Assembly: GCA_029762535.1 (NCBI GenBank)
Contig: JARVGK010000002.1
Location: forward strand, 73,603-137,602
DNA from: Thermoplasmatota archaeon
GTDB taxonomy: Archaea; Thermoplasmatota; Penumbrarchaeia; Penumbrarchaeales; Penumbrarchaeaceae
Length of the DNA: 64,000 nt
Reading direction: 5' to 3'
Shown here: positions 17,319-59,202 of the stretch, in pieces
How the letters are laid out: each line of letters starts with the position of its first letter
How positions within the stretch are numbered: the first letter of the stretch is position 1
Position numbers and translations under genes: made by a program
Notes under the pieces: model-generated
Seen by the model: only the letters and a program-made list of their open reading frames with translations
The model's database searches: none
What the model was told of the DNA's origin: nothing

Positions 17319-17319
17319 G

Positions 17320-19326
17320 TTATAACACTCCGTAGAAGCGTTTGTTTATTTCTTTGTCCTCGTCTGATACGCCATAATCCTCGTCATCAATTTCGTTGAA
17401 ATTAACATAAAGCTGATTTTTATCCAGACACTCAATTAGGAATGCCTTTTGGTTCTCCAAGTCCAAGTCCTTGAAATCTTGAGCATTTTCATCGAATTGC
17501 TTCGGATCTATTCTGTAACTAAGGAAAGCTTCTTTTTTCATCTTATCCCATATTGCCAATAAATCTTTTATTGTCTTTGCTTCTTGAATTTTATCCATAT
17601 AGGATTCATTCCATTTCATCAGTTCACAATAAATAAATTCACCACCACCTTCCCACTTTACATATTTTGAGATACCAGATTGATCATAATTTTCAATTTT
17701 CTCTATTAATTTACCCTTTGAGTTTGCATTTCCGATAACATTTTTTAATCTCATAAGCGAATCATTTTTACCATAATCCAATTGTTCTATGCCGAGATAT
17801 TTTCTACCCAACTTATGCGCAACTGCACATGTTGTACCACTACCTAAGAAGAAATCCAAAACAATATCTCCCTTATCAGTTCCCATTTCAATTATTCTCC
17901 TTAAAAGTTTTTCTGGTTTTTTACCACGTTTTAATTTAACATTACCTTCATTAGCAATTCCTTCCCAAGGTATATCCGTCCATATATTTGATAATAAATT
18001 TGTTGGAACGAGATTACCATCAATGTTTCTAACCTTGTTATTATAAAAAGTAATTTCTTTTCCATTTAAGATATATCTATCAGTTAAATTATCTCTTCGA
18101 TTAACAAATACTTTATCCAGATTCTTCAAAGATTCTTCCTTTATGTCTAATGTTTCCTTTCCAGCATCAATGTTTATTTCTGTAAATCGAAAGACTCTTT
18201 CCTTATTATTCAAGGCATAGTCCGCTAATTCAGATAAAGTACGATTTGTTCCTAATTCTTTTTTTAAATATCGACTATTTTTAACCTTAAACTTTTCCGC
18301 AATAATATCTTTAATATTTGAATAAGTCCAATTTGATGGGTTTTCTTCAATATTGTCTATCTGAAATGAATAATTTTCATCATAATTAGTTTCTTCGTAT
18401 TGAGTGATGTACTTCCACAACTTTTTAGACTTTGCATAAATTAATATATATTCGGCACTTTCAAAAACTCCCAAATTTACAGTTTTAAAACCAGACGGAG
18501 ATCGAGTTTTTATACTAATAAGATTAATGAAATTATTATCAAATATTTCATCTAGTAATATTCTTAATCTGGATACATGAATGTCGCTAATTTGAATGAA
18601 AATGGCCCCATCCTTACATAGTAATTCTCGTGCAATTTCTAATCTGTTTTTCATAAATGTAAGCCATGTTGAGTAGTTAAAACTATCATTATACTGAAAC
18701 TCATCATTCCCTGTATTGTAGGGAGGGTCAATGTAAATTAATTTAATTTTTCCAGCATATCTTTTTTTCAATGAATGCAAAGCAAGGAGATTATTACCTT
18801 TAATCATGATATTATCTGTTGTTTTAATTTCTTCTATGTTATGCTCTCCTTTTGCATCAATCCGTTTTAAACCAGTCAATACTTTAGGATCGAATAATCT
18901 GTCAATCTCATCAGGAGCAAGAATTTCATTCCAAAATATTTCTTTGCGATTTTTTTCTTCGGGATCTTCCATTCCGCCTTCCAAAACGCAATCTTTGTAT
19001 GGCCAGGATAGAACCACTTCACTACTTTTTGTTAGGTATTCGTTTTGTGTTGTAAGTCCAATCTTGTTTTTGAAAGTGGTGTACGAATCTGGTAAGAATT
19101 CTTTGTTATCAACGAATTTCATGAATTTTTCTTTGTCAAAAATGATTGCTTTATTTACAATTTTAAAGAAATGCACTTTTAATTTTTCGTTTTCAAGAAG
19201 GAGGGAAATCAGCTCATCATCGAGTTTAAGACCAAGTTCGATTATTTTATTTTTCAATAATTTATCATCTGAAACTAAACGTTCATCCTTTTTTAATGTG
19301 TCAATCATTTCATCAATTAACGTCAT
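17320..19326 (-). CDS. Type III R-M DNA methyltransferase (Mod; beta-class N6-adenine/N4-cytosine MTase)
   Basis: 668 aa. Catalytic motif IV IDPPYNTGND precedes motif I FFLGSGTT, the beta-class order typical of Type III Mod. Its start overlaps the upstream ATPase stop (ATGA). Confidence 0.7.
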   Translation of the reverse strand: MTLIDEMIDTLKKDERLVSDDKLLKNKIIELGLKLDDELISLLLENEKLKVHFFKIVNKAIIFDKEKFMKFVDNKEFLPDSYTTFKNKIGLTTQNEYLTKSSEVVLSWPYKDCVLEGGMEDPEEKNRKEIFWNEILAPDEIDRLFDPKVLTGLKRIDAKGEHNIEEIKTTDNIMIKGNNLLALHSLKKRYAGKIKLIYIDPPYNTGNDEFQYNDSFNYSTWLTFMKNRLEIARELLCKDGAIFIQISDIHVSRLRILLDEIFDNNFINLISIKTRSPSGFKTVNLGVFESAEYILIYAKSKKLWKYITQYEETNYDENYSFQIDNIEENPSNWTYSNIKDIIAEKFKVKNSRYLKKELGTNRTLSELADYALNNKERVFRFTEINIDAGKETLDIKEESLKNLDKVFVNRRDNLTDRYILNGKEITFYNNKVRNIDGNLVPTNLLSNIWTDIPWEGIANEGNVKLKRGKKPEKLLRRIIEMGTDKGDIVLDFFLGSGTTCAVAHKLGRKYLGIEQLDYGKNDSLMRLKNVIGNANSKGKLIEKIENYDQSGISKYVKWEGGGEFIYCELMKWNESYMDKIQEAKTIKDLLAIWDKMKKEAFLSYRIDPKQFDENAQDFKDLDLENQKAFLIECLDKNQLYVNFNEIDDEDYGVSDEDKEINKRFYGVL

Positions 19327-21803
19327 TTCTTTTCCTCCTTATTATTCGAAATTAAATTCCAGTTTACGCTTCCACAATTACATCTTACGCCACTTTGTTT
19401 CATTCCATCTGCTGTAATTTTCAATATACCACCACAACTATGACATGAAAAGAGATAATATAAATCTTGAAATGCCTCTTTTATAGGTCGAAAGTCTTTA
19501 TCACTAAAGTTTATCCAATTATTAAAATGAACGTTTGCATTAATTCCCCATTGTTCAGCATATGTGCGTTTATAAATGCTAGAACGCATTGAATCTAATT
19601 CTTCAAATTTTGCCGTCTTTTCTGATTTTTCCCAGGAAACTGATGATTTTTTAGCCTTTTTAATTAAGTCCTTATATCCATCCATTAATGGTATTGTAAA
19701 ATCACCAAGATCTAGCTGGCCGTTTAATTTGTATCGTACTCGTATCTGTAATGAATCACACACTAGCCCAAAATACTCTTCCAAACCGCGTCTTAATCTC
19801 GAAGCAGCAGAAGGAACATCGTTTCTTGTCAAATCTTCTTCAATTTTACTCCAGAGGTCTGCTTGAAGATTTACTTGAGGCCCTGTATCAACTTTCCAAT
19901 TATAGAATTCAACCATGCAACTCTTATTATCAACAACTCCTTCACTTCTCATTTGATTAGCCCATGTCTTATCATGGGTTGTGATTAAAAATTGTCTGTT
20001 TGGGAAATTTGATGCAAGCACGCGACAAATATCTCGCCTATGATTCGAATCCACAGACATTATTACATCATCTAAGATAATGAGGTCAATAAGACCTTCT
20101 GCCAAACGTTCAGATAGAGCCAAATATAAACAAAGCCCCATACTATCTTGATGACCTTCACTGTGGAGGGCTTGTGGAGAAAAAGCCCCTCGGCCATAAA
20201 AATCAACTTCAAATTTTAATGCCGCCCCATCTGGTGAAATAGTCGCGGAAAAATCTTTTTCGTCTGAACCATGTAATTCTTTATATAATTGCACAAAGCG
20301 ATCATTTACATCTTTGTAAAGATTTCCCAATATAGTATCTCTGGAATATTCAAATGTATTTAACAATATCTCTGCTTTTTTATATGAGATACTTGCGTTT
20401 TTAAAATCATTTTTTGCTTTTTCAAGACCTTTTAAATTTTCTTCAAGGCGTGTTAATGTATCCCACGCAGTTTGTTCAGGGGTTATCGGTGGCGCTTTGG
20501 TTTTAACAATTTCTATTAGAGTTTGAAGATTTTGTTTAATTTCCTCAGAAATAAGCATGTGTTTTACTCTGTCGCTATCAAATTCGATCAATGGATATTT
20601 TTCGAGTGGATTAGCTAATGCTATGGATAACTGATTCAAATCTGACGAACATGTTTTCAATTGGATGCTCCATTCCTTTTCCTCAATTTTATTTAATACC
20701 TCAATTATTTTATTTATGCTTCCTCTTGTATTGTTCACACGCTTTGATATGGAATCGGACAAAGATGTAATTCTGTTTCTTTGTTGTGATATTTCTTCAA
20801 TATCAGTCAATTTTGAGGTAAGATATTCATCTAATTTACCGCTTGGCCACTGTGTATCACACAATGGGCAGTTACCCGTGTCATCGATCATAGATTTTCC
20901 AAGTTCAATTAATTGAAATCGATTGTATGTTTTCAATAATTTCGGATTCGATTTTATAGAGTTTAGAAGATTTCTAAGTTCTTTATCAAATTCAATGATT
21001 CCTTTTTGATTCTTTTCGTCAAAGGAATTATGAATATTTTGAATATCTTTTTCAAATATAGTAAGATTGACATGATTGTCGTTGATAATACTGGTAGGTG
21101 GCGTAAGGGCCTTTTTTAACGTATCTGAAGAAACCGAATTCAATTCATTACTTTTTAATGTTTTACGTAATTGATTTACGTAATCCAGTAGCATCTTTTC
21201 ATTAAATGATGTTGTTTGAATTGTTGCGTTAACCTCACCTTTTTTCTCATCTATTGCTTCTTCTTTTGTCTGCTTTTCTCTTTTAAAAGTATTTTCAATA
21301 TTTACAAATGCTTTTCTTATTATTTCAATGTCTGATATATTTAATAATGCTTGAATCTCCTGGGCACGTGTACTACCATCAGAGGTAATATATTTTAAAA
21401 TTTCTCGTCTTGTTAATACATGTTCTCCCCTCGATGCAAGGGATAAAATGGGTTCAAGATTAGGTAAATATTTTTCATCAGATACAACTAACTTAGTGGG
21501 TTGTGCCATATCTCTTTTTATTTCAATAGGAACATTAATTTTTGGAAATTGAATAACTGCACGTACAATAGCATCTTTTGGCTTGTGATCAATATGTGGG
21601 CCACATTCTTTCAATTTGATATTGCGAGTTCCCTCTCCCTTTAAACGAGAAATTCGACCTGTTAAGAGGAAATCAATGGCATCAACAACAGCACTTTTCC
21701 CTGAACCATTTGGCCCCCATATTACTATATTTTTTCCTTGGGGCGTTAGTTTTATATGGGTTATACCCCGCACATTTTCAATTTCAAGCTCAATCAGTTT
21801 CAA
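19323..21803 (-). CDS. SMC/RecF-like ABC ATPase with long coiled-coil insert and C-terminal Zn-ribbon
   Basis: 826 aa. Walker A GPNGSGKSAVVDAI. Signature-like SEGHQDSMGL. Walker B LIILDDV. H-loop TTHD. C-terminal CHSCGG...RCNCG. Confidence 0.65.
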   Translation of the reverse strand: MKLIELEIENVRGITHIKLTPQGKNIVIWGPNGSGKSAVVDAIDFLLTGRISRLKGEGTRNIKLKECGPHIDHKPKDAIVRAVIQFPKINVPIEIKRDMAQPTKLVVSDEKYLPNLEPILSLASRGEHVLTRREILKYITSDGSTRAQEIQALLNISDIEIIRKAFVNIENTFKREKQTKEEAIDEKKGEVNATIQTTSFNEKMLLDYVNQLRKTLKSNELNSVSSDTLKKALTPPTSIINDNHVNLTIFEKDIQNIHNSFDEKNQKGIIEFDKELRNLLNSIKSNPKLLKTYNRFQLIELGKSMIDDTGNCPLCDTQWPSGKLDEYLTSKLTDIEEISQQRNRITSLSDSISKRVNNTRGSINKIIEVLNKIEEKEWSIQLKTCSSDLNQLSIALANPLEKYPLIEFDSDRVKHMLISEEIKQNLQTLIEIVKTKAPPITPEQTAWDTLTRLEENLKGLEKAKNDFKNASISYKKAEILLNTFEYSRDTILGNLYKDVNDRFVQLYKELHGSDEKDFSATISPDGAALKFEVDFYGRGAFSPQALHSEGHQDSMGLCLYLALSERLAEGLIDLIILDDVIMSVDSNHRRDICRVLASNFPNRQFLITTHDKTWANQMRSEGVVDNKSCMVEFYNWKVDTGPQVNLQADLWSKIEEDLTRNDVPSAASRLRRGLEEYFGLVCDSLQIRVRYKLNGQLDLGDFTIPLMDGYKDLIKKAKKSSVSWEKSEKTAKFEELDSMRSSIYKRTYAEQWGINANVHFNNWINFSDKDFRPIKEAFQDLYYLFSCHSCGGILKITADGMKQSGVRCNCGSVNWNLISNNKEEKK

Positions 21804-21993
21804 GTTCTTCCCTCGAAGTAGTTTTTAATACGCTGATAATTTTTTTAGTATCAGCTAATTGTCCTGTTGAATTAAGTTCACGAAGCTTATTGATGGTCAC
21901 CACATTAAATTCATCTTTATCATTGAGGTCTGAAAACATTTTATCAAGTATGTGGTCAATCAATGAAGATGTTTGTATTGTTTCGGGAGTCAT
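21790..21993 (-). CDS. small 67-aa protein, function unknown (operon partner)
   Basis: ORF MTPETIQTSSLIDHILDKMF.... Its ATG overlaps the RHH TGA (ATGA), and its 3' end overlaps the ATPase start by 14 nt. Confidence 0.45.
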   Translation of the reverse strand: MTPETIQTSSLIDHILDKMFSDLNDKDEFNVVTINKLRELNSTGQLADTKKIISVLKTTSREELETD

Positions 21994-22130
21994 TTATTTA
22001 CCTCCTTCATCTGTTCTTCCATCATAATTTCAAATTGTCGGGATATGAGCCACCCCTTCTTCTTACAGAATCCTTTGTATCGTTCGTAAAGGTCTTCATC
22101 AACACTGAGGGTTACGTTCTTTGAAGGCAT
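21990..22130 (-). CDS. ribbon-helix-helix small regulator, 46 aa (third paralog)
   Basis: MPSKNVTLSVDEDLYERYKGFCKKKGWLISRQFEIMMEEQMKEVNK. Confidence 0.55.
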   Translation of the reverse strand: MPSKNVTLSVDEDLYERYKGFCKKKGWLISRQFEIMMEEQMKEVNK

Positions 22131-22161
22131 GATAATCACATTCATCTCCAAATGTCAGCAA

Positions 22162-22174
22162 ATGTATATAAGTA
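22162..22174 (-). promoter_or_regulatory. putative TATA box for the RHH-ATPase-Mod-Res operon
   Basis: Minus-strand CTTATATAC about 35 nt upstream of the RHH ATG. Confidence 0.3.
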
Positions 22175-22189
22175 TTCGCTTTTTCCGTT

Positions 22190-22620
22190 TCTATTCGTTG
22201 TTCGGAACACCCCCCACGTCCATAGAGTAAGAAAAAATTTGGGTATTCGCTTTGCGAATCCGTTTAACATCCGTTAGCCGAGAGTCTGGACTTGTCCAGA
22301 TTTTGGTGGTTCTTTCCGTCTTGTTTCCGTTAAACGAAGGCAACAACGTCATGAATTTACGGTCTCCTTTTCATAGGCATGGTTTCAAATTGAAGATAAC
22401 GGAACGCGGGTATGCGAAGTGAATATGTTTCCAGTGCGGTTCCTCAGCAGAGTATTCATTTGGGAGAGCGAGTGCAACGAAGCGAACCGCATACCCGCGT
22501 GTTAAGTCCTCCGAATGAAGTTATCCTACGGATAACGAAATGAGAATGCAATGAGATCGAGCACCGCAGACCGTTAGGTTGAGGAGCGGAGAAGTTGGCC
22601 AGCCAAGAACGTTGTTCGGG
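22190..22620. repeat. structured repeat elements (two units)
   Basis: 22200-22330: AAAATTTGGGTATTCGCTTTGCGAATCCGTTTAACA. 22390-22620: GATAACGGAACGCGGGTATGCGAAGT...CATTTGGGAGAGCGAGTGCAACGAAGCGAACCGCATACCCGCGTGTTAAGT. Followed by GAAGTTATCCTACGGATAACGAAATG and the tail ...GAGCGGAGAAGTTGG. Confidence 0.6.
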
Positions 22621-22832
22621 ACACGGTGGATTTTTTACTACCAATCTACCCCACAAGGGTTATAGGTCGAGGGTGTCTTGCTTGTAAGTCGAGGGGTTTG
22701 AAATACTTGTCAAACCAAGATTTGACCATGGCGAGGTTTACTATCTTTTGGGTTATCGTTCTGACCATTATTATTTTAGAGTTGCAATATGATTTGTTCA
22801 AATTTTCTGATGAATTCGTAAGTAAAAGAGAT

Positions 22833-25800
22833 TCAATCCTCCTCCTTTATTGGTTTGATGGTTCGAAGGTTCAAAGAAAAAGATCGCCCCTCGATATTTT
22901 CTTCTGGGATATCATCATATCTCGTTATAATAACCTTATCATCAACTTTATCACTGAGGTTTTCCACATTCCATAACTCCCATCGATCCCCACCTTCTTC
23001 CTGACTTAAAAGGAATTCCACATATTCCCTAGAGGTTATGTTTACAATTTTGGAAGAACCTAAATGTGCCTTGACTTCGATCTTAATTTGTTCTCTATCA
23101 CGAATAGCAATGATATCATAGCCTGGATTCTGTTTGGGCATTTGTTCAACTTCGAATCCTTTTAATTCTAACTCTCTTTGAGCAAATGATCTTCCTTTAG
23201 TTTCTATCATCTCATTGTCCTCATATGATGTTCTGTTCCCAGATTTGCCACCACCACCGCCACCAGATGAACCCTTAGTTTCCTCATCAACTCTCTCCTC
23301 TGTATTAACTTCATATTCAGAGTCGTCATCCTTTAATTGAATACCTTCATCTTCCTCTGAATCTGGAGTTCTTTCTTCTCTATTTTGCTCATCAAGTAAT
23401 TTTTCCTTATTGTCTTCTTCACTTTTTGTCGGTTGTTTCGGCTTTTTAGGAAGCATACCAGGAAATGGCTTCTTCGATGGTGGAGTTGACTTTTGTTGAT
23501 CAGAGTCTTTGTGTTTTACATAGTCGTTATTGAATTCTAAAAAAGAGATATCGATCTGTTCATCTGATATTCCGCTGGAAGTCAATTTTTCTCGTCTTTC
23601 GTAATCATTATTACACCTTAAAAGATTTTCATAAGTGTCGGCTTCTCCTGGCACTCCTAAATAAAACGATATTGATCGAGATATTGTAGTTACACTTTGT
23701 TTATCTTCACTTATGAATATTGTTGAACCAACAATGTAAAAATCTCCGGATATTTCGGTTTCATACTTATCAAGTAGTATCAATTTTTTTCGAATTTCCT
23801 TTTTTACTTTAACTTTGATATTTTTAATTCTTTGAATCAATTTCTGATGATCTGATAGTTTATCCGATCTTATCACATATATGTATGAAAGACTGTCAAT
23901 TAGATTTTTCGCCAATTCCGGTTTCAATTGTTTCTCATCATCATTTGTCTCAATTATTTCTTCCTTCAATATATTCTTATCACTAATTTGACGTTTTCCA
24001 AAATACTTACTTACAAACTGGTGATATCTTCTAGATATATTGAAAAAATAAACATCATTATTAAAAGCATTTTTAATCTCCACATCATCATTAATGAATA
24101 TCTCTTTGCTACTTATAATTTGAAATATATTGCTTCTTTCACATAAAAGGGGACAATCATGAAGCAATAATTCAGGAAGTGCTACCATCAAACTATTTGT
24201 TGTATCTAAACATCTTTCGTAGATTTTCATTATTTTGAATCTTAATTCTCGATTATCATTTATATCTTCATCTGAAATGAATTTTATTAATAGGTTGGAT
24301 AATATTTCTTTCCATTCTTCAGGTTTTAATTCATCAATATTTGTTCTAATAATTTTCACTTTATTCTTTAACCAATGAAAAATATTATCCTTTGAACTCT
24401 CAAAAAGATTTAAATTGATAACTGGTAATAAATACCCTATTTCAAAATTATCTTTTTCATTTAATATCCAACATTCTTCCAATGGTTTAGGATCTAGATA
24501 ATGTGTAAGAGGAGGTATGAACTTTGTTTTTAAATCAAACCACCATGATGCATCTGAGTTTCCATAATATAATGCTCTGTTGTATGGTCGATAGTGTACT
24601 CGAATATTCATATATTCTTCATAGTATTCCCAATTGTTTGCTATTAACTTTAATAAGGATATTTTAGATTTTTCAGGCAATTCGTCTAAATTTATTTTAT
24701 CAAATCTTTTATTATAACTGATTTTTTCAACATTATTATAATCTTCATTCACATGTATCGGAATTTCTTCTGTAGAAATTAATCGGGGAAATGTTTTACA
24801 CCCTAACCATCTTAAGATATCTTGATCAATTATTTTCTCTAAGCTATTGTTTTCTTTTTGTACCCATTGTATATCGTAATGATTGCGAAATAATGAGTTC
24901 AAATCACTATTGCCCCATTCTTTTCCCATATATCCAAATTTGGCTTTTATCCATATAACATCTTTTTTCCCCTTCCTTCTAGATGGAATTGGACAATTTC
25001 TAATTCCTACGGGTGCATTTTCTTCTTTCATCAACCATTTATTTTTATAGATATATCGATAATATATTGAGGGATTATCTTTTTGATTCTTGTTCCTACT
25101 ATCCCAATAATTCTCAATAGCTTTAATTAAAGCTTTTTCTGTAACATTTTCAATTCTCTCTACACCCAATGTTGCTAGGATTTTGTTGACTGAATGATGG
25201 TTTTCCAATAACTTATCCCCAAACCATTCATCAACAAACACTATCGGCATCCATTTAGGTACGAGATTTTTCTTGTCTTGATCAGATTTCCAAGTGATGA
25301 TTTGACCCTTTGAATTGGCAATTGATATCAGATGATTACCAACAGGAAGTATTGGTAGACTTTTTATAATCTCAATTTTCTCCTCTTCATTGATTTCATC
25401 TGAATCATGATTAGCCCAATTAGAGAGCCATTTCCAACAAGTCCAAATCCAATCAATATTTCCTGTATTTTTAGATGACTCTTCATTGATTACACTTAGT
25501 AACGTATTATCATCAATCAAACTGCAGTTCATGGATTTTAAAACGTTATATGAAACTTCATTCTCCTCATAACTGAAATGTAACAAGTTGTCACTAATAT
25601 TTGATGTATTTAAAATTTTACGGGCGTTTGTCAAATCACATGTTGTTGATATAAGCTTTATATCAGAGAAATTTAATAATTTTTCTCCATTAATATTGCC
25701 GAATTTTAAAGTGTTCTTTGAATAATCAACAATCACATCCCAAAATAATTTGGTGATTTCATGACTGTTTCTCTCCTCAAATGGTGATAACAATGTAATA

Positions 25801-26930
25801 TTATTTGCTGGATCACCTTTTAAATATTGCTCATCCACAAATTCAACTAATGTATGAACGAGATTATCCATTATCCATTTATTTAGATTATTATTCTCTA
25901 TCGGAAGAATTTCCGTTCTATCACTTTTTACAAAAAAATCCGCATGAAGAAGTATTGGAACTGGGGAGTAGTGTTTTGTCGGATAATACACATGGATTTT
26001 TGGGTAATCGGTCATAGATCTGATTTTACCATCAATGACATATGTACCAACCAGGAAATTAATTCCATCTTCGATAATTCTCGCATTATCTTCTTTATCA
26101 AGGTTAGATAAGAAATAAGGTGGAATCATATCACCCGACATCGTTTTTCGTTTGATTTTCCATTTCGTTACATCTTCAACGCCATCAATGGTATCATTGA
26201 TTACATTTTCCTTATCTATTGTTATTTTCCTTAAGGTTTTACTTGAACCAACAGCATCAATTATCTCCAACATTCTAATATGATGAAATGTTAGGAGAGT
26301 ATAATTTTTCAATGAAATTTTATCAAATAATACTTCGTTATCAATTTCCTCAAGATAATTCAATTTAACTACAGTTGACCAATCCGATTGAGAGGTTAGA
26401 TATTGATCATTCAAAGAAATATCATCCCAGGATATCGAAAAAGGGATCCATTGATATGGTACATCATCATCTGGAAAACCATTATTTTGTAACCATTGTT
26501 TCGCCTTTTCAAATGAGAATTCTACTCCCTCTCCTCCTATGCTAAATATTTGTGGATTATTTGAAATCTCATAAACAGCTTTGAATCCTAATCCCTTTCT
26601 TCCGATGGTCCCAGATTTTTTAATTGAATAATCCGTTCCACACAAAGATTCAATAGCATCTGGCTGTAATCCTACTCCCTTATCCAAGATATAGACCGAT
26701 TTATCGGTCAACAAAACCTTTACCTCTTTAGATTCTGCATCATCACAATTTTGGAATAATTCGTAAAACCATCGTCCAGTGTGGTCAGAAGTTACTCTTT
26801 CTGCACTTCTTGTGTCTCTGATGATTCGTTTGGGATCTCCTTTATATGTCCCTTGTAATTTTTGGTTGAATAAATCAATTGCCTTTTTAATAGGTTTCAA
26901 TATACTATCACCATCGACATACACAATCAT
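22833..26930 (-). CDS. 1,365-aa protein: N-terminal sacsin/Hsp90-like GHKL ATPase domain, long middle region, Gly-rich linker, C-terminal DUF3883-like (PD-(D/E)xK-fold) domain
   Basis: N-terminus FYELFQNCDDAESKEVKVLL and GRKGLGFKAVYEISNNPQIFS match the sacsin-repeat ATP-binding signature. C-terminus is GSSGGGGGGKSGN followed by NPGYDIIAIRDREQIKIEVKAH (the EVK motif of DUF3883). Very AT-rich. Confidence 0.6.
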   Translation of the reverse strand: MIVYVDGDSILKPIKKAIDLFNQKLQGTYKGDPKRIIRDTRSAERVTSDHTGRWFYELFQNCDDAESKEVKVLLTDKSVYILDKGVGLQPDAIESLCGTDYSIKKSGTIGRKGLGFKAVYEISNNPQIFSIGGEGVEFSFEKAKQWLQNNGFPDDDVPYQWIPFSISWDDISLNDQYLTSQSDWSTVVKLNYLEEIDNEVLFDKISLKNYTLLTFHHIRMLEIIDAVGSSKTLRKITIDKENVINDTIDGVEDVTKWKIKRKTMSGDMIPPYFLSNLDKEDNARIIEDGINFLVGTYVIDGKIRSMTDYPKIHVYYPTKHYSPVPILLHADFFVKSDRTEILPIENNNLNKWIMDNLVHTLVEFVDEQYLKGDPANNITLLSPFEERNSHEITKLFWDVIVDYSKNTLKFGNINGEKLLNFSDIKLISTTCDLTNARKILNTSNISDNLLHFSYEENEVSYNVLKSMNCSLIDDNTLLSVINEESSKNTGNIDWIWTCWKWLSNWANHDSDEINEEEKIEIIKSLPILPVGNHLISIANSKGQIITWKSDQDKKNLVPKWMPIVFVDEWFGDKLLENHHSVNKILATLGVERIENVTEKALIKAIENYWDSRNKNQKDNPSIYYRYIYKNKWLMKEENAPVGIRNCPIPSRRKGKKDVIWIKAKFGYMGKEWGNSDLNSLFRNHYDIQWVQKENNSLEKIIDQDILRWLGCKTFPRLISTEEIPIHVNEDYNNVEKISYNKRFDKINLDELPEKSKISLLKLIANNWEYYEEYMNIRVHYRPYNRALYYGNSDASWWFDLKTKFIPPLTHYLDPKPLEECWILNEKDNFEIGYLLPVINLNLFESSKDNIFHWLKNKVKIIRTNIDELKPEEWKEILSNLLIKFISDEDINDNRELRFKIMKIYERCLDTTNSLMVALPELLLHDCPLLCERSNIFQIISSKEIFINDDVEIKNAFNNDVYFFNISRRYHQFVSKYFGKRQISDKNILKEEIIETNDDEKQLKPELAKNLIDSLSYIYVIRSDKLSDHQKLIQRIKNIKVKVKKEIRKKLILLDKYETEISGDFYIVGSTIFISEDKQSVTTISRSISFYLGVPGEADTYENLLRCNNDYERREKLTSSGISDEQIDISFLEFNNDYVKHKDSDQQKSTPPSKKPFPGMLPKKPKQPTKSEEDNKEKLLDEQNREERTPDSEEDEGIQLKDDDSEYEVNTEERVDEETKGSSGGGGGGKSGNRTSYEDNEMIETKGRSFAQRELELKGFEVEQMPKQNPGYDIIAIRDREQIKIEVKAHLGSSKIVNITSREYVEFLLSQEEGGDRWELWNVENLSDKVDDKVIITRYDDIPEENIEGRSFSLNLRTIKPIKEED

Positions 26931-27252
26931 ACTTTAATCGTGGACCTTTGTTTATTTTTGCGGTCATAAACATCATTTTCCGAACTTGTTCTATGCTTTT
27001 ACCATATTTATAAGCTTCTTTGCTTTCACCCAAGCTCCATGTTATTACACCCTCAACCTATTCTTTCCAAAAAATCCACCGTGTCTTTTTACCCCGAAGT
27101 CTGGCTGGCCAATTGGACTTAACTCCTATCATGCGATGTGTTGGATCGGATACTTTCACTTTCACATGGTTATTGCGAAGATTTATTAACCCGGGATCCT
27201 CCTTTGGTTTCATGGGATCATACCCGGACATGGATAAGGAGATGGTGAATAT

Positions 27253-28053
27253 ATGAATGTTTCCGAAAAGGGCAGGGAGAGAATGCTGGCTCGGCTGGAT
27301 GAGGAGATGAGGCTTCGGAAGTATTCGCCTGCGACAATGAAGCAGTATCTCGGATTCATCAAGAGGTTCCTTGATTCCGGATCCGATCCCCGGAGCTTCA
27401 TGCTGGGTCTCTCCGACAGATGCTCACGATCCACGGTCCGATCCGCTTACTTCTCCCTGACGTTCTTCTATCGATATGTCCTTCATCAACCCTTCGACGA
27501 GGGGATCCCCCTCGCAAAGCGCGGTGGGAGGCTTCCAACGGTACTCAATCGCGAAGAGGTCCATTCCATGATCGATAGCGCCGTGAACGTTAAGCACAAG
27601 GTCCTGCTGATGCTTCTGTATTATGGTGGCCTAAGGCTCAGCGAGGCTCGATCCCTGCGCTGGGAGGGTCTCGATTTCGAACGGGGGATCATCCATATAA
27701 AGCACGGGAAGGGGGATCGGGATCGGGTCGTCTTTCTCCATTCCAGGCTTGCAGAGGCGCTTTCCGTATTGGGGGTTAAAAGCGAAGGTTGCGTATTGAT
27801 CTCTTCGGTCTCCAAAGGAGCCTATACACCAAGGGGTATCCAGTTGACTGTCGCGGATATCGCTAAACGGGCGGGGATAAAAAAGAGGGTCAGTCCCCAT
27901 ACGCTTCGGCACAGCTTCGCGACCCATCTCCTTGAGGCCGGGGCTGACGTCAGGCACATACAGAAGCTTCTGGGGCACAGGAACCTGTCGACAACACAAG
28001 TATACACCCACATCGCCGACCGGGAAATGATCAGGATAGTTTCCCTGCTCTGA
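27253..28053 (+). CDS. tyrosine-type site-specific recombinase (Xer/XerA-like)
   Basis: 266 aa. R..., HTLRHSFATHLLEAGADVRHIQKLLGH, and the catalytic Y in STTQVYTHI. No IntI-type extra domain. GC is like the host. Confidence 0.75.
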   Translation: MNVSEKGRERMLARLDEEMRLRKYSPATMKQYLGFIKRFLDSGSDPRSFMLGLSDRCSRSTVRSAYFSLTFFYRYVLHQPFDEGIPLAKRGGRLPTVLNREEVHSMIDSAVNVKHKVLLMLLYYGGLRLSEARSLRWEGLDFERGIIHIKHGKGDRDRVVFLHSRLAEALSVLGVKSEGCVLISSVSKGAYTPRGIQLTVADIAKRAGIKKRVSPHTLRHSFATHLLEAGADVRHIQKLLGHRNLSTTQVYTHIADREMIRIVSLL

Positions 28054-48328: not shown

Positions 48329-48368
48329 CGCATCACATATGAATCCCGGGATGCCGAGTGGATGATCA

Positions 48369-49197
48369 ATGGGATCCAAATCCCTATCGTCAATTTCTAG
48401 TGTTACATCAATGAGTGTTACTTTGATGAGAAGATGTTGGTGCTCCCGACGGAACCTTTGGATCGTCCTCACATTGACGGGAAATCAGATCCAAAGGTTC
48501 AGGAAAATGCCCAACGGGCATTTTTCGTATAAAAGCAATGTTAAGCATCCATTTCCGGGAACTTTACTATTTGACGGAAGGAAATGGATGAGAGAAGGGA
48601 GCACACTTGTAAGCAATGAAGATGTTGGTGCTCCCGACGGAATTTGATGCTTGGAAAGTCACCTGTGACTTTCCGCATCTCGCGAGATGCTGATCGTCAA
48701 ATAGAGATACGCATCTCACGAGAACCCGGACTGGTCAGTGATCAATTGGTGGGATTCAAATCCCTACCGTCAAATCCTAGCGTTACATCAAGGGGTATTA
48801 CATCTATGATAAGATGTTGGTGCTCCCGACGGAACCTTTGGACTGTCCATAATATGACGATAATTCAAGTCCAAAGGTCCAGGAAAATGCCCAACGGGCA
48901 TTTTTCGTATAGAGGCAATGTAAAGCATCCATTTCCGGGAACGGTAATATTTGACGGAAGGAAATGGATGCGAGAAGGGAGCACACATCTAAGCAATGAA
49001 AAATTTGGTGCTCCCGACGGAATTTGATGCTTGGAAAGTCACCTGTGACTTTCCGCATCTCGCGAGATGCTGATCGTCAAATAGAGATACGCATCTCACG
49101 AGAACCCTGACTGGTCAGTGATCAATTGGTGGGATTCAAATCCCTACCGTCAAATCCTAGCGTTACATCAAGGGGTATTACATCTATGATAAGATGT
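48369..49197. repeat. tandem repeat array (A 188 bp + B 192 bp) x2 in front of tRNA-Glu; each unit begins with the tRNA 3' end (TGGTGCTCCCGACGGAA)
   Basis: Unit starts at 48438, 48626, 48818 and 49006, then the tRNA at 49198. Unit B holds perfect palindromes GCATCTCGCGAGATGC and GGAAAGTCAC-CTG-TGACTTTCC, plus a T-arm-like GGGATTCAAATCCC. Unit A holds the hairpin AAAATGCCCAACGGGCATTTT. Confidence 0.8.
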
Positions 49198-49273
49198 TGG
49201 TGCTCCCGACGGAATTTGAATCCGTGTCGCTGGCTCGAGAGGCCAGCATGATTGGCCACTACACTACGGGAGC
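49198..49273 (-). tRNA. tRNA-Glu (anticodon CUC), CCA encoded
   Basis: Minus strand: GCTCCCGTAGTGTAGTGGCCAATCATGCTGGCCTCTCGAGCCAGCGACACGGATTCAAATCCGTCGGGAGCACCA. Anticodon stem CTGGC/GCCAG, loop CTCTCGA, T-arm ACGGA-TTCAAAT-CCGT. Confidence 0.75.
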
Positions 49274-49333: not shown

Positions 49334-50998
49334 TCACTTGCCTTTGACCTTGGCCCAGGTGTCCCTCAGCGTTATGGTCCTGTTGATCACGAGCCTGTCG
49401 GGATCGCTGTCCGGATCGATGCAGAAGTAACCTAACCTCTCGAACTGGAAACGTGAGAGATGTGGAAGCTTCCCGACGATCTGCTCCACCTTGCACCCCT
49501 TGAGGACCTTCAGCGAATCATGGTCGATATACTCTGTGAAGTCCCCGGGCATCGAGAGGGGATCCTCAACCGTGAATAACTTGTCATACTGCCTCACCTC
49601 GGCATCGATCGCATGTTTGGCCGACACCCAGTGCAGGGTGGACCTCACCTTCCTGCCGTCAGGGGCATCCCCTCCCCTGGAGGCGGGATCCACCTTGCAC
49701 ACTATCTCTTTCACCTCGCTCCCGTCCTTGACCACATTCGTGCAGGTGACGAGATACGCGTTCCTCAGCCGGACCTCCCTTCCTGGAGCCAGCCTGTAGA
49801 ACTTCGGGGGTGGGTCCTCCATGAAATCCTCCCTTTCGACATACACCTCGCCTGAAAAAGGGACCTTCCTCCTGCCAGCGGATGGGTCCTCGGGATTGTT
49901 GATGACATCCATCTCGTCCTCCCCTTCGTAGTTCTCGATCCTCATCAGCAGGGGGTCAAGTACGCCCATGTAGCGGGGAGACGTCCTGTTCAGGTCCTCC
50001 CTGACGGCGTGCTCCAGCGTCTCTATGGCGATCGTGGAGTTAATCTTCGCGACGCCTATCCGGGAGCAGAAATCCCTGATGGACGCGGGAGAGTAACCTC
50101 TTCTTCTCATACCGCTTATCGTGGGCATCCTGGGGTCGTCCCAGCCGGATACCAGCTTCTTCCGGACCAGTTCCAGGAGCTTCCTCTTGGACATGACGGT
50201 GTATGTCAGGTTAAGCCTTGCGAACTCTATCTGCTGGGGATGATATATCTCAAGTTCGTCCAGGAACCAGTCGTAGAGCGGCCTGTGGTTCTCGAACTCC
50301 AGAGTGCATATCGAATGGGTGATACCTTCTATCGAATCCTCCAACCCATGAGCCCAATCGTACATGGGATAGATGCACCATTCGTCCCCGGTGTTGTGAT
50401 GCGTCGAGTGCAGGATGCGGTACATGACCGGATCCCTCATGTTCATGTTGGGATGCGACATGTCGATCCTGGCCCTCAGGACCTTCTCTGCGTCCCTGAA
50501 CTCCCCTTTTCTCATCCTCTCGAACAGCTCTAAGTTCTCCTCAGTGCTCCTGTTCCTGTACTCGCTCTCTATTCCAGGGGCTGTCAGCGAACCTCTCATT
50601 CTGGATATCTCATCGGCGGTATGGTCATCGACGTAGGCCTTGCCCTTCTTGATCAGGTCCACTGCCCATTTATACATCTGCTCGAAGTAATCCGAGGCGA
50701 AGTACAGCCTTTCCTCCCAGTCGAAACCCAGCCATCTCACGTTATCCTTGATCGAACTGACGTATTCCTCCTCCTCCTTGGCGGGGTTGGTGTCGTCGAA
50801 GCGCAGGTTGCATTTTCCCCCATATTCCCCTGCGATCCCGAAGTTCAGGCAGATCGACTTCGCATGCCCTATGTGCAGGTATCCGTTGGGTTCGGGCGGG
50901 AACCTGGTATGTATCCTCCCATCGAACCTGCCCGAGGCGTTGTCCTCGTCTATGATCTCCCTTATGAAGTCCTTCGGGACCATTTTTTCCTCGACCAT
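49334..50998 (-). CDS. glnS: glutamine--tRNA ligase (GlnRS), bacterial/eukaryotic type
   Basis: Signatures: [23 protein letters not shown] (HIGH), [42 protein letters not shown] (KMSKS), [17 protein letters not shown], and the C-terminal anticodon-binding RLGYFCID. Collinear with E. coli GlnRS as recalled from memory. Confidence 0.8.
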
Positions 50999-51135
50999 TA
51001 CGGGTCACCAGTACAGCTAATGCCATGGTACTAATTATATCTGTCAATCGTCGAGTGGGGATTTTGAATAAAGGTCCGAACAATAACCCTGCCGCACAGC
51101 CAAGTATTTATCCCTTGATGTTCGCTCCGGGTCCG

Positions 51136-51975
51136 ATGAAAAGGCTTCGTGGCATGCTCTCCATAATCAGGCCCGAGGACTGTGCCATAAGCTCGATCGC
51201 GGTGTGGGTTGGCCTCGCTGTGTCCTCGAGGAGATTGGTCCCTTCAAGACCCCTGCCGCTATTGATGTGGGGCTTGTCCACGTTCTTCCTTGTGGCGGCC
51301 CTGAACATACTTAACGACATGGGGGATCTCGAGATCGATCGGATGATACACGAGAAGAGGGCACTTGCTTCAGGGAGGATCTCTCTGAGGCTGACCGAGA
51401 GATACCTCCTGGGAGTGATATTGGCCTCGCTCTTATTCGCTTTTATCGGAGCGATGGTCGGAAAGAGCGCTCTGCCCATGCTCATATACATCATCGGTTT
51501 GGGACTGGGATTGTTATACGAGATCAAACTCAAGCGGTTGGGGTTCCTGGGCAACATCGCCATTGCGGTGCTTTTCGCTTTCCCCCTCCTTCTGGGAGGA
51601 TCCCTCGAGAGGATCACACTGCTTCTCGTCATACTATGCTCCATGGCGGTCGTCAACGGGCTTGCAAAAGAGGTGATCAACGACGTCAAGGACCTCGAGG
51701 GGGATAGGGGAAAGAGGCCCACTCTACCGCAGTGGATCGGGGTGAAGCCATCGTTGTCCATCGCAGGGACCCTGATCATGGCGACTGTGGGTATGAGCAT
51801 ACTGCCTTTGACATTCGTTGGATGGAGCATATCCTACATCATCCTGATCTCCATCTGCGATGCGATCCTGCTATCGGTCATCGTACTTTCCTTCAGGAGG
51901 CCGATGCTGGCGCATAACGTTCACAGCCTGGGGATGCTCGCATCACTTCCAGCCTTCCTCTCGCTTTCGATCTGA
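51136..51975 (+). CDS. UbiA-family prenyltransferase (possibly a DGGGP-synthase-like archaeal lipid enzyme)
   Basis: Asp-rich NDMGDLEIDR and a second DVKDLEGDR, with 8-9 TM helices. The ORF runs from 51025. Confidence 0.6.
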   Translation: MKRLRGMLSIIRPEDCAISSIAVWVGLAVSSRRLVPSRPLPLLMWGLSTFFLVAALNILNDMGDLEIDRMIHEKRALASGRISLRLTERYLLGVILASLLFAFIGAMVGKSALPMLIYIIGLGLGLLYEIKLKRLGFLGNIAIAVLFAFPLLLGGSLERITLLLVILCSMAVVNGLAKEVINDVKDLEGDRGKRPTLPQWIGVKPSLSIAGTLIMATVGMSILPLTFVGWSISYIILISICDAILLSVIVLSFRRPMLAHNVHSLGMLASLPAFLSLSI

Positions 51976-52027
51976 GTAGGATTTGATCTTCCTCCAGTTC
52001 GAACTGGTCGGTTTAATTATAATGTAA

Positions 52028-52399
52028 TGGTAGCCCCGCTAAAATTTCCCCGAAATTTTAGAACACAAGAAAACGGATCCCCACCCCGAAAGAGGCTATG
52101 ATTGTGCAGCCACTATTCCATATAGCCTTCACATTAATAGAGATGGAATAGTGGTAGCCCCGCTAAAATTTCCCCGAAATTTTAGAACACAAGAAAACGG
52201 ATCCCCACCCCGAACATGGCTATGATTGTGCAGCCACTATTCCATATAGCCTTCACATTAATAGAGATGGAATAGTGGTAGCCCCGCTAAAATTTCCCCG
52301 AAATTTTAGAACACAAGAAAACGGATCCCCACCCCGAAAGAGGCTATGATTGTGCAGCCACTATTCCATATAGCCTTCACATTAATAGAGATGGAATAG
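52028..52399. repeat. 3 x 124-bp tandem repeats in front of tRNA-Gln, each starting with the tRNA 3'-terminal 11-mer (TGGTAGCCCCG)
   Basis: Copies start at 52028, 52152 and 52276, then the tRNA at 52400. Copy 2 differs by GAACATGG versus GAAAGAGG. A T-arm-like CCAGTTCGAACTGGTCGG sits in the opposite orientation at about 51997. Confidence 0.8.
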
Positions 52400-52475
52400 T
52401 GGTAGCCCCGACCAGATTCGAACTGGTGACAAGAGATCCAGAGTCTCCTATGCTAGACCGCTACACTACGGGGCT
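52400..52475 (-). tRNA. tRNA-Gln (anticodon CUG), CCA encoded
   Basis: Minus strand: AGCCCCGTAGTGTAGCGGTCTAGCATAGGAGACTCTGGATCTCTTGTCACCAGTTCGAATCTGGTCGGGGCTACCA. Anticodon stem GGAGA/TCTCT, loop CTCTGGA, T-arm ACCAG-TTCGAAT-CTGGT. Confidence 0.75.
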
Positions 52476-52596
52476 ATGCTGTCGGGGCGAGGGATTATTC
52501 AAAATATATATTACCCTTGCGGTCGGGGTAGATCCCTTCAGGATAACATCTCCTGCGATAATGTTAATAAGAAGCAGCATGTTCGCCTCCCCGATA

Positions 52597-57430: not shown

Positions 57431-57889
57431 TCAGGCGAGGATCATGGCCAAGCCTTCGGCTGGCCTGATACATTCCACTTTGCATCTGTCGGATCTGTCG
57501 ATCTCGCTCTTCAAGGGTCCATCCTGGGAAACGATCGGTCTGTCGAAGAACCTTGCTATCGGAAGAAGGAACCGATCCTTTTGGTTGATATCTAAGAAAT
57601 CCAGATGATGTTCCGATCCTTCGCCGCAAACATCCTCGGGACAATATTCAATTCTATCGGAATCGATCAGGACCCTCTTTATCACTTTGAAGAAGTTGAT
57701 CTGGGAATAATCTTTACCCAGTTCCTCCAAATGACCCCAATACCTCCTGTACAGTTTCTCATTCAAACAGAATATCGATCTCGACATGATGAATTCTTTC
57801 ATGAAAGGCGATGAATCCCCTTCGTCCTTGACGAAGAATATGATCACGTTCTCGTCGATGACAAATTGACATTTTGCCAAATCGATCAC
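57431..57889 (-). CDS. small partner protein of the AAA ATPase (TOPRIM-like / DUF4276- or RloB-like?)
   Basis: 152 aa. Acidic IIFFVKDEGDS near the N-terminus. Its start overlaps the ATPase stop (ATGA). AT-rich. Confidence 0.4.
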   Translation of the reverse strand: MIDLAKCQFVIDENVIIFFVKDEGDSSPFMKEFIMSRSIFCLNEKLYRRYWGHLEELGKDYSQINFFKVIKRVLIDSDRIEYCPEDVCGEGSEHHLDFLDINQKDRFLLPIARFFDRPIVSQDGPLKSEIDRSDRCKVECIRPAEGLAMILA

Positions 57890-59202
57890 TGGTCCCCGAA
57901 GAAATCCTTCATCTCCAAAAGATCGGCTTCGAAGAAACCGGGAAGGCCTCCCTTGACCATACCCCGATCGTTTATCTCCACATTTGAGGTTCTAACAGCG
58001 CCGTCTTTCATTTCAAAATAGATGATGGCCACATCCTCTTTCTTAAGTTCTCCACGGGAGATGGATGAAAGTATCGGATAGATCATGTGTTCGGAATGCG
58101 TCGAGAAAATGATCTGCTTGTTCTCATCCTTCCAGACTTTGATGAACAATTTCATCAGGTCCGATTGTGTCCTCGGATGAAGATGGATCTCCGGCTCCTC
58201 GATCAATATCGTATCCAACTCATCGGACAAGGCGATGGGGATGAGCATATGCAGCATCTGCTGGGATCCCAGCCCTTCGTTTATCAGCAAATTGTTCTTA
58301 TCTGATCTGATCTTCAAAATCGACCTCTTGTCACCGACCAGTTCCGCATATACATCGATCTCCAGTAGCTCCTTGAACCATCTGGATATCTTGTCAGCGA
58401 CATCCTTATTCGAAAGCATCATGGCGGATATTATCTTTGATCTGATATCGAGTTCCAGGTATTCCGTTCTTTCCTTGCTCCACCCGTTTATCAATTCCTG
58501 CGTATGTGTCTCGAAACCTCTGATCCCATAAATGAACGTCCATGAACGAACAAGATTTTCAAACAATCCAAGCATCTGTTTTGCCATGTGAGAATATCGC
58601 TTTTCATCATTTCTATCCGGAACCTTAACATTATAATGGTTGGTCGGCCTCAGGAAATTTGGAGAATAGAATAAGACAATATCAACGTCACTATTTTGGA
58701 CGGTTATATTCATGTTAGGGTCGTTCAAAGCATCCTTGTTTCTTATGTCAATGATATATTCATTGTCCATTTTTCCGTAGTAATCACATTTTGTTATCTT
58801 CAATTCTTCATCGAACTCATAAAATACCTCTGAATAACCTTCTTTGAACCCTATTCTCTTGCTGATGGTGTCTTTGATCAAAGCATTACCCTTGATTTCG
58901 ATCGAGATCCCTCTCAGAATATCATTTATCATATCCTGCGGTTTTGAACCAAGGTCGACCAGCCTTGACAAACTATCATTCGTATTCTCACTGAATGATC
59001 CTTGGTCCATTGAATACAACACTTCTTTGTTCAAGTACAATTTTTCCTTGAACAGGAGAAGTAACTGAAAAATAGTGGATTTCCCCGAATTGTTCGGCCC
59101 TATGAAAACGGTGATCGGTTTGAGATCGAGATCCGTATCCGCATGTGCCTTGAAGTTCTTTACCGCGAGTTTTGTCAGCACACCGATCACCAGTTCAGGC
59201 AT
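57886..59202 (-). CDS. AAA_21/OLD-type ABC ATPase (defence-associated)
   Basis: Walker A GPNNSGKSTIF. Walker B and H region LIEEPEIHLHP and FSTHSEHM. AT-rich. Confidence 0.6.
   Translation of the reverse strand: MPELVIGVLTKLAVKNFKAHADTDLDLKPITVFIGPNNSGKSTIFQLLLLFKEKLYLNKEVLYSMDQGSFSENTNDSLSRLVDLGSKPQDMINDILRGISIEIKGNALIKDTISKRIGFKEGYSEVFYEFDEELKITKCDYYGKMDNEYIIDIRNKDALNDPNMNITVQNSDVDIVLFYSPNFLRPTNHYNVKVPDRNDEKRYSHMAKQMLGLFENLVRSWTFIYGIRGFETHTQELINGWSKERTEYLELDIRSKIISAMMLSNKDVADKISRWFKELLEIDVYAELVGDKRSILKIRSDKNNLLINEGLGSQQMLHMLIPIALSDELDTILIEEPEIHLHPRTQSDLMKLFIKVWKDENKQIIFSTHSEHMIYPILSSISRGELKKEDVAIIYFEMKDGAVRTSNVEINDRGMVKGGLPGFFEADLLEMKDFFGDQ

Follow-up and report, generated by a model that had tools for sequence, protein, structure and literature searches.

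Among the described systems, the one closest to the locus treated here is the trailer repeat of the Escherichia coli tyrT/tyrV genes (178 bp x 3.14), which was reportedly described by Egan and Landy in 1978 and by Rossi et al. in 1981. In our direct check, tyrV was followed by 3.1 copies of a 178-bp unit in Tandem Repeats Finder (TRF), with the tRNA-Tyr 3' end including CCA in each unit. The tyrT/tyrV unit carries the last 18 nt of the tRNA (plus flank) and overlaps the annotated RttR small RNA (sRNA) and tpr, and in a comparison with 4,700 complete genomes of the species, a single unit had 1-9 matches in each (median 2). One of the repeat units encodes the rtT/RttR sRNA (PMC3318445), and that paper cites Bosl and Kersten (1991) for the trailer repeat. 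In this study we analysed a stretch of 64,000 nucleotides (the window, within which positions are counted below) of contig JARVGK010000002.1 from a Thermoplasmatota archaeon, in which the tRNA-Gln(CUG) gene is accompanied by three 124-bp tandem repeats. The array is a real recombination hot spot and not a new kind of system. Our preferred reading, to which we give a probability of about 0.45, is that it represents a copy-number-unstable trailer repeat of tRNA-Gln, an archaeal counterpart of E. coli tyrT/tyrV, produced by partial tandem duplication and unequal recombination.

An earlier note made from the sequence had placed the repeats before the tRNA gene; because the tRNA lies on the minus strand, they are located downstream (3') of it, in its trailer. 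Read on the plus strand, the stop codon of a UbiA gene (51975) is followed by 18 nt, an inverted T-arm, a 16-nt spacer, three times an 11-nt core with cassette U, and the core of the tRNA itself. The features of the locus are as follows.

52400-52475, minus strand: tRNA-Gln(CUG), CCA encoded, intact and canonical (ARAGORN; Rfam RF00005, 59.5 bits)
52028-52038, minus strand: outermost 11-nt core of the tRNA-Gln 3' end (exact-match search; CGGGGCTACCA)
52152-52162 and 52276-52286, minus strand: the other tRNA-Gln 3'-end cores, the tRNA's own end being 52400-52410 (exact-match search)
52039-52151, minus strand: cassette U copy 1, 113 bp, 41% GC, without an open reading frame (ORF), identical to copy 3 (sequence, TRF)
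52163-52275, minus strand: cassette U copy 2, with a 3-base substitution cluster (sequence comparison)
52287-52399, minus strand: cassette U copy 3, adjoining the tRNA-Gln gene (sequence comparison)
52039-52061: hairpin A of U, a perfect 10-bp palindrome CTAAAATTTC CCC GAAATTTTAG adjoining the core, repeated at +124 and +248
52110-52154 (arms 52110-52121 and 52143-52154): hairpin B of U, 12-bp stem CCACTATTCCAT ... ATGGAATAGTGG with a 21-nt loop, repeated at +124 and +248
51994-52011, plus strand: inverted copy of the tRNA-Gln T-stem/T-loop/T-stem and first acceptor bases, CCAGTTCGAA-CTGGTCGG (CCAGTTCGAACTGGTCGG)
52012-52027: AT-rich 16-nt spacer TTTAATTATAATGTAA from the inverted T-arm to the outermost core, ancestral tRNA trailer
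52501-52517, minus strand: TATA-like box GGGTAATATATATTTTG, putative tRNA-Gln promoter, about 25 nt upstream of the tRNA 5' end

The three 124-bp repeats with the 3'-terminal 11 nt of tRNA-Gln in each, as first noticed from the sequence, were confirmed by TRF (52028-52410, period 124, 3.1 copies, 97% matches, score 745) and by a search with CGGGGCTACCA, the tRNA's 3'-terminal 11 nt, which had exactly four matches, all on the minus strand, at 52028, 52152, 52276 and 52400; with one mismatch allowed, about 0.9 chance matches were expected for this 11-mer. Each 124-bp unit is composed of the 113-bp cassette U and the last 11 nt of the tRNA (CGGGGCUACCA), and three such units stand in tandem as assembled. 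The array starts inside the 3' end of the intact tRNA, carries the terminal nucleotides including CCA in every unit and ends in a partial unit, with three cassettes and four cores (n cassettes, n+1 cores). Direct repeats of the tRNA 3' end thus bracket the insert, and the tRNA is restored; the gene is identical at 76/76 positions in the related locus L098, and a 40-nt query from its 3' part is matched exactly in L082. The substitution cluster in copy 2 was likewise recovered: this copy departs from copies 1 and 3, which do not differ from each other, at three positions, all within 52212-52219 (GAACATGG vs GAAAGAGG), in the segment that mirrors the 5' acceptor strand of the tRNA. Cassette U has 41% GC vs 55% in the neighbouring genes, holds no ORF of 60 aa or more, has no Rfam match at gathering thresholds or at E <= 10 (only the two tRNAs were found), and has no further copy in the window or among the 95 other loci compared. 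Hairpin A appears in the folds of both strands and is identical in L084 and L098. Hairpin B was read from the sequence, and the computed folds show a 9-bp version of it; its right arm takes in TGG, the antisense of CCA, of the next core, and in the last copy this arm pairs with the CCA of the real tRNA. Because the right arm includes the antisense CCA, the CCA of the tRNA-Gln transcript would pair with the trailer. The TATA-like box is kept in L098, L082, L085 and L092. U itself has no clear archaeal promoter, and there is no T-run directly after the CCA of tRNA-Gln in the window; the models of a sigma-70 promoter and intrinsic-terminator scan are not applicable to archaea.

Several other identities of the unit were rejected. 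A small ORF in U does not agree with the dense stop codons or with a unit length of 124, which is not a multiple of 3. An array of clustered regularly interspaced short palindromic repeats (CRISPR) was dismissed since the 113 bp between cores, which would be the spacers, are the same in each unit, and the RNA repeats of type III toxin-antitoxin systems since no toxin gene adjoins the array and units of this length are too long for them. A miniature inverted-repeat transposable element or another element derived from an insertion sequence was rejected as well: the ends of U share only CTA and form no terminal inverted repeats, the duplicated block ranges from 11 to 85 nt and is not fixed, and no dispersed copies were found in the window and the 95 loci. 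Breaks triggered by restriction cleavage at TTCGAA fail for tRNA-Glu, whose T-loop reads TTCAAAT. The complement of the tRNA end on the plus strand is a trivial consequence of duplication and was not taken as a T-box-like or primer-binding-site-like element.

Relatives of the locus were collected by a metagenome scan and by look-ups of UbiA and aldolase homologues, which gave nine informative loci. Writing X for the inverted T-arm, the 16-nt spacer and 16-24 nt of the tRNA-Gln 3' end, and V1, V2 and W for cassettes other than U, the tRNA-Gln trailers are arranged as follows.

L001: glutamine--tRNA ligase (GlnRS) 68% identical; tRNA-Gln without CCA, no array; GTTCGAATCTGGTCA 13 nt downstream, matching its own tRNA
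L092: X-V1-X
L082: X-V1-X-V1-X; TRF 164 bp x 2.3, copies 94% identical
L085 (with L086 and L087): X-V1-X-V2-X
L096: X-V2-..., without V1
L098 and L102: the window's outer flank and U (in L098 at least two copies of U, with an N-gap), then two 112-bp units before the tRNA
L084: outer flank and the start of U, then the contig end

The repeat arrays are clade-wide, and the presence and copy number of the cassettes vary. The punctuated architecture was found with other cassettes and copy numbers in eight relatives, where each tRNA (Gln, Glu) is trailed by short palindrome-rich cassettes between copies of its own 3' end; the suggestion that a lineage-specific, recurrent process and not coincidence acts at both tRNA 3' ends is therefore upheld. 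At least three unrelated families of tRNA-Gln cassettes (U, V1 and V2/W) could be distinguished. The variation in copy number that the earlier note proposed to look for is present, with 0-3 copies among related genomes (V1 1 vs 2; W 0 vs 2; V2 0 vs 1). The U unit is also present in the ENA contigs L084, L098 and L102. The window and L098 share 95-96% nucleotide identity, yet they differ by exactly two 112-bp W units bounded by 24-nt tRNA-end repeats; the extra 112-bp unit of L098 and L102 consists of a 24-nt core, W, the inverted T-arm and the spacer (TRF 112 bp x 2.3). Such insertions and deletions fit the proposal that copy-number change is seeded by the repeated tRNA-end core.

Short reads resolve 124-bp units poorly, and one may ask whether a single copy of U, or a mixture of strains, was expanded to three copies by the assembler. 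Copies 1 and 3 are the same and copy 2 is one cluster off, a pattern that a strain bubble could mimic, and the assemblies of relatives break or show N-gaps at the arrays. However, gap-free multi-copy arrays occur in independent assemblies of other samples (L082, 2.3 x 164 bp; L098 and L102, 2.3 x 112 bp), L098 has at least two U units, and the contig breaks themselves point to repetition, so that an assembly artefact is highly improbable. A Logan contig from SRR24067139, whose GlnRS and UbiA proteins are identical by length and gene positions, covers the window from about 52057 to about 49244; one of its ends lies some 30 nt into the first U unit and the other within tRNA-Glu, which is where repeats would be expected to interrupt an assembly graph. 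Several relatives are represented by contigs of only 2.7-3.4 kb, at least one end of which lies at or close to the array of tRNA-Gln or of tRNA-Glu. Runs of N were seen in the tRNA-Glu array of L085 (7818-7926) and in the U array of L098 (3143-3261); since they show repeats left unresolved in public assemblies, the copy numbers of these two loci are lower bounds.

According to the reading that we prefer, the array would have originated from a tandem duplication of the tRNA gene region, from the upstream leader and promoter to the CCA end, which would have separated the tRNA from its ancestral trailer by a second copy of the gene. In this distal copy, the body would then have decayed or been remodelled into palindromes, with the 3' 11 nt and, in L098, the 9-nt 5' boundary (CAT|AGCCCC) as the surviving ends. 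Direct repeats, first the tRNA-end cores and later whole units, would misalign in replication or recombination, and units would be added, deleted or swapped; besides unequal recombination, units may occasionally be replaced laterally. Such misalignment would explain why related genomes carry 0-3 copies of different cassettes at the same site. The primary transcript of tRNA-Gln, with no T-run after CCA, would run into U as far as the TTTTCTTGTGTT tract, the first stem of U would sequester the CCA, and U would act as a trailer or terminator, possibly yielding a processed small RNA, as rtT in E. coli. The units are probably transcribed as tRNA trailer. The X-U-X arrangement cannot come from duplication of the trailer because the ancestral spacer and the inverted T-arm still follow the last core, and the extra DNA must therefore have another source, either upstream, the gene and its leader being duplicated as a whole, or elsewhere. 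In the U of L098, CATAGCCCC, the 5' boundary of the tRNA, lies 73 nt before CCA vs 79 nt in the real gene (9-nt match; longest-match P = 0.03, local alignment P = 0.05), and the unit length of 124 bp is close to that of promoter plus tRNA. In L082, the leader of the tRNA is matched by the end of V1 nearest to the tRNA (P <= 0.003); no significant match was seen in L085, and a promoter copy carried by V1 was rejected for this reason. With the 24-nt core, W/V2 makes 79-80 nt with two hairpins, for which ARAGORN gives a tRNA-like call only at the 80% threshold, and the acceptor-like helix of the 70-nt segment of U, described below, also speaks for a duplicated gene.

A number of observations weigh against this origin. 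The similarity between the window's U and the tRNA gene is weak (P = 0.13), as is that between W/V2 and the 5' part of the tRNA in global alignment (P = 0.12-0.44), and Infernal found no extra tRNA-like hit at E <= 10. Simple decay fails to account for perfect ends together with an unrecognisable interior, and an 11-nt core is short for homologous recombination. Furthermore, U is far more conserved than neutral sites (110/113 positions identical in L098, P = 2e-5; first 24 nt identical in L084), which points to function or recent lateral exchange and not to junk. The tRNA-Glu cassette Vb is identical at 102/102 positions in the distant L084, with the boundary of identity exactly at the tRNA-end core, and this looks like the exchange of discrete cassettes. 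Nor does this origin explain why U is so strongly conserved, why every cassette is built of palindromes, or why inverted repeats with loops of about 24 nt are conserved at the two tRNAs. A weak C/D-box-like hit upstream of tRNA-Gln in L085 was far below threshold.

The inverted T-arm had been taken in the earlier note for a remnant at the edge of the array. It is indeed present there, at 51994-52011; the view of it as a scar of the array did not hold, since the element occurs in every relative examined, including one without an array, and it is an ancestral, conserved element of the trailer. It lies 13-16 nt downstream of tRNA-Gln in all the relatives examined, including the array-free L001, is conserved in L001, L082, L084, L085, L092, L096, L097 and L098, and belongs to the repeating unit in other lineages. 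The 16-nt spacer TTTAATTATAATGTAA diverges fast among relatives and, judging from the T-rich tRNA strand in relatives, is probably a terminator. In L085 (11084-11154, plus strand), V2 and the inverted T-arm together gave a weak tRNA-Arg(ACG)-like call at the 80% threshold of ARAGORN, on the strand opposite to tRNA-Gln; from this call, the inverted T-arm might be the T-arm of a decayed convergent tRNA.

The array stands next to a short block of genes that is bracketed by a second tRNA with a comparable trailer.

51118-51975, plus strand: UbiA-family prenyltransferase, convergent with tRNA-Gln, its stop 18 nt before the inverted T-arm (Pfam PF01040, NCBIfam)
49334-50998, minus strand: bacterial-type glutamine--tRNA ligase, between the two tRNA arrays (NCBIfam glnS, 716 bits)
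49198-49273, minus strand: tRNA-Glu(CUC) (ARAGORN)
48345-49273, minus strand: tRNA-Glu and its trailer array, with five tRNA 3'-end copies, cassettes Va and Vb and a 68-nt inverted-T-arm module

The GlnRS and UbiA block is bracketed by tRNA-Glu(CUC) and tRNA-Gln(CUG), and the synteny is kept in relatives. Among the best 80 genome hits of GlnRS, all but one are bacterial by title (metagenome-assembled genomes or genomes), with 60-70% identity. The host is archaeal; it has a UbiA-type prenyltransferase, and the best relative of its GlnRS comes from a Thermoplasmatota metagenome-assembled genome. The second tRNA locus of the same kind, as claimed earlier, does exist, and tRNA-Glu 3' ends punctuate its array; its description as a simple 380-bp repeat was not borne out, because the trailer is more complex than its 380-bp TRF period. 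The tRNA-Glu 3' end has five exact copies, at 48438, 48626, 48818, 49006 and 49198 (spacing 188/192 bp), which alternate with the cassettes Va and Vb and with the 68-nt module beginning with an inverted T-arm-like sequence. A hairpin of this trailer has a 12-bp stem, a 24-nt loop and five compensatory pairs across three sequence types, and a second inverted repeat, GGGAGCAC vs the tRNA's own GTGCTCCC, again has a 24-nt loop. ORFs of 92 and 127 aa across the tRNA-Glu units were rejected as frame artefacts of the repeat. The array is also a mosaic (window 48345-49214; L084 1-230; L098 1-276), in which the outermost unit matches the close L098 (98% over 109 nt) and the two inner units carry Vb, 100% identical to the distant L084; this mosaic speaks for the lateral replacement of cassettes. 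In the window's clade, both tRNA-Gln and tRNA-Glu have an encoded CCA, which is absent from tRNA-Gln of L001 (5338-5411) and from tRNA-Glu of L092 (4712-4785), L085 (8005-8078) and L097, and the pseudo-copies in the arrays always match the CCA state of their own tRNA.

The rates of change differ among the cassettes. Between the window and L098, 14.8% of four-fold degenerate sites differ and the flank from UbiA to the core is 83% identical, and U reaches 97% identity. Against L084, 46% of four-fold sites differ, yet U is unchanged over its first 24 nt. The rate of V1 is close to that of the background, with conserved stems and variable loops, and U, V1 and V2/W are largely vertically inherited. 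A conserved promoter or terminator region in relatives had been named in the earlier note as the finding that would speak against it; U is indeed conserved in relatives, as part of the tRNA trailer and not of its promoter, which bears this objection out in part. Outside the 22-nt tRNA-end core, the identity of Vb with L084 falls immediately to 73%, and L098, which is much closer than L084, has at the position of Vb a divergent Vb' whose two stems differ by compensatory changes. A Vb that is perfect in a distant relative and divergent in a close one argues for lateral exchange and not for sequence constraint.

Sharp-edged exchange of this kind is a prediction of another explanation, namely that the units are miniature integrative cassettes inserted at the tRNA 3' end by a recombinase encoded elsewhere (a tyrosine integrase or a XerA/integron-like enzyme). 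Integration would regenerate the tRNA and move the old 3' end outward, and tandem copies would result from repeated integration or from attL x attR exchange between sister chromosomes, as in the accretion of cis-mobilizable elements (CIME). An intact tRNA with direct repeats of its 3' end is the classic signature of such events, and partial archaeal tRNA genes are known products of element integration (PMC9897764, PMC3293823). The repeated block, whose length differs by cassette (Gln 11, 16-18 and 24 nt; Glu 17 and 22 nt), invariably begins within the T-loop, T-stem or acceptor and extends to the end of CCA, many junctions lie at the palindromic T-loop TTCGAA, the cassettes are independently present or absent in relatives, Vb is 100% identical across lineages with 46% four-fold divergence and its identity starts exactly at the core, and an integron-integrase/XerA-like recombinase is encoded in the window. 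Because variable block lengths, T-loop junctions and the sharp-edged exchange of Vb are what it predicts, we keep this explanation as a strong rival, although we consider it unlikely on balance. No integrase lies within or adjoining any array at the nine loci, and none of the arrays of L082, L085, L092 and L098 is adjoined by a recombinase. The only recombinase of the window (266 aa, 27253-28053) is XerA/integron-integrase-like, scores below both curated cut-offs and is located 24 kb from the tRNA-Gln array. Cassettes of 55-171 bp without ORFs would require implausibly small double-stranded circles, there are no inverted core-binding sites around the 11-nt core in the U-core-U junction, and the largely vertical inheritance of U, V1 and V2/W is also at odds with it. 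The end cores of tRNA-Gln and tRNA-Glu were found nowhere else in the window, nor were island attachment (att) sites resembling tRNA ends. No matching attP or cassette was present on the viral, phage or plasmid records searched: viral contigs of IMG/VR had no exact match to hairpin A of U, the U centre, Vb or the Gln and Glu tRNA ends (at the sensitivity of exact words), and blastn of U against phage and plasmid collections gave no match (at a sensitivity of about 65% identity). The integrase activity suggested in the earlier note is accordingly not supported, the cassettes being free of ORFs, the only recombinase of the window distant, the cores absent elsewhere and U absent from the virus and plasmid sequences searched.

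The region around this recombinase has features of its own. Four imperfect palindromes of about 90 nt, at 10313, 12315, 13178 and 13573 (window 10313-13667), start with ..TAACGGACGCGACTATGCGAAGTT and end with ..CGTATAGTCGCGAGTTA, and resemble integron attC sites (..AAC / GTT.. frame). The tyrosine recombinase at 27253-28053 had its best NCBIfam scores with the integron integrase and archaeal XerA, and the palindromes and the recombinase may form an archaeal integron-like region. Adjoining the recombinase is a low-GC island (14700-27000, 27-34% vs about 55% GC) with a type III restriction-modification pair (Res 14721-17318, Mod 17320-19326), an SMC/AAA ATPase (19323-21803) and a 1365-aa HATPase/NOV_C protein (22833-26930). 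L089 and L090 have a similar integrase beside a variable region, with HsdM in one and UvrD in the other. At window 57431-59202, an AAA_15/AAA_21 ATPase (438 aa) with a small downstream ORF coincides with a local GC dip to 41% and is possibly another defence gene pair.

The conservation of U well above neutral sites also bears on the possibility that the units are functional RNA genes, which would encode a structured small RNA with a tRNA-like acceptor end. A cloverleaf-like RNA of about 70 nt, AGCC(C/U)C...CGGGGCUACCA, would be cut from the read-through transcript of U by RNase P and tRNase Z and would mimic a tRNA or serve as a decoy or sponge. In another version, it is the plus strand that would act, as an antisense of the tRNA 3' end. 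Although they differ in sequence, all three U variants can be drawn on paper with a 6-bp acceptor-like helix, and this helix occurs in the minimum-energy fold of the U of L098 and of window copies 1 and 3, not of window copy 2. The 70-nt segment of the L098 variant has a cloverleaf-like minimum-energy fold; the fold energies of this RNA are, however, no better than those of shuffled sequences (z = -0.65 to +0.44). For the whole U unit, the plus strand is more stably folded than shuffled controls (z = -2.1) and the minus strand is not (z = 0), and the G.U pairs of the cassettes are commoner on the plus strand. W (L098) and V2 (L085, L096) have only short end motifs in common and the same two hairpins, with 9/31 predicted pairs changed on both sides, and the five compensatory pairs of the tRNA-Glu trailer hairpin are of the same kind. 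The precedent is E. coli, where rtT is cut from one repeat unit. On the other hand, many of the cassette stems are perfect palindromes with 0-3-nt loops, which speak more for symmetry at the DNA level or for snap-back synthesis than for RNA helices under selection, U has neither an Rfam match nor a clear archaeal promoter, and the cassettes come and go between close relatives, so that no single cassette is essential. We consider that the units are rather unlikely to be RNA genes. An undescribed archaeal cassette system, in which short palindromic cassettes would be inserted, exchanged between lineages and amplified by a site-specific mechanism recognising the T-loop/acceptor region of particular tRNA genes and its inverted copy downstream, in an integron-like manner or via single-stranded hairpins, and would yield acceptor-mimic or antisense sRNAs, seems improbable.

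The arrays have several implications. The tRNA 3' ends of this Thermoplasmatota clade are fast-evolving recombination hot spots which break short-read assemblies, and the trailer arrays are strain-level length polymorphisms that could serve as markers. Should the cassettes be transcribed, small RNAs could arise from tRNA trailers in archaea; should they be exchanged site-specifically, a new way would be revealed by which non-coding DNA uses tRNA genes as landing pads. The bacterial-type GlnRS that stands between the two arrays was acquired horizontally, which raises the question whether these hot spots helped its entry or spread.

As compared with integron cassette arrays and their Vibrio cholerae repeat (VCR)-type attC sites, the arrays of this clade are likewise chains of short units between recombination-prone imperfect palindromes, with strain-variable content. 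They differ in that the cassettes are gene-free, the punctuating repeat is a tRNA end and not an attC site (there is no RYYYAAC...GTTRRRY frame), and there is no adjoining intI or attI; the link is one of analogy only. The att duplications of integrative elements (PMC9897764, PMC3293823; bacterial CIME and accretion arrays, PMC5812530) share with the window an intact tRNA with partial 3' copies downstream as direct repeats, and a hot spot in which the inserts differ by strain. Their inserts, however, are of kilobase size and carry an integrase or its remnants, whereas those of the window's clade have 55-171 bp, no gene and no mobile-element homologue, are tandemly amplified and are partly conserved across species. 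The E. coli tyrT/tyrV trailer is bacterial and has no sequence similarity to the window's repeat (blastn); its core has about 18-19 nt vs 11 nt in the window, and it comprises two intact tRNA genes in tandem, with a small ORF and an annotated sRNA in the repeat, whereas the archaeal array belongs to a single intact tRNA and holds no ORF. The archaeal clade is further distinguished by several unrelated cassette families, two different tRNAs and a conserved inverted T-arm. In both, the tRNA is followed by a head-to-tail tandem repeat that starts inside its 3' end, the terminal bases including CCA are repeated in each unit, the 3.1 copies given by TRF amount to three cassettes and four tRNA ends, the filler is non-homologous and bears hairpins, and genomes differ in copy number. 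The tyrT architecture, classic in E. coli, is not an oddity of bacteria.

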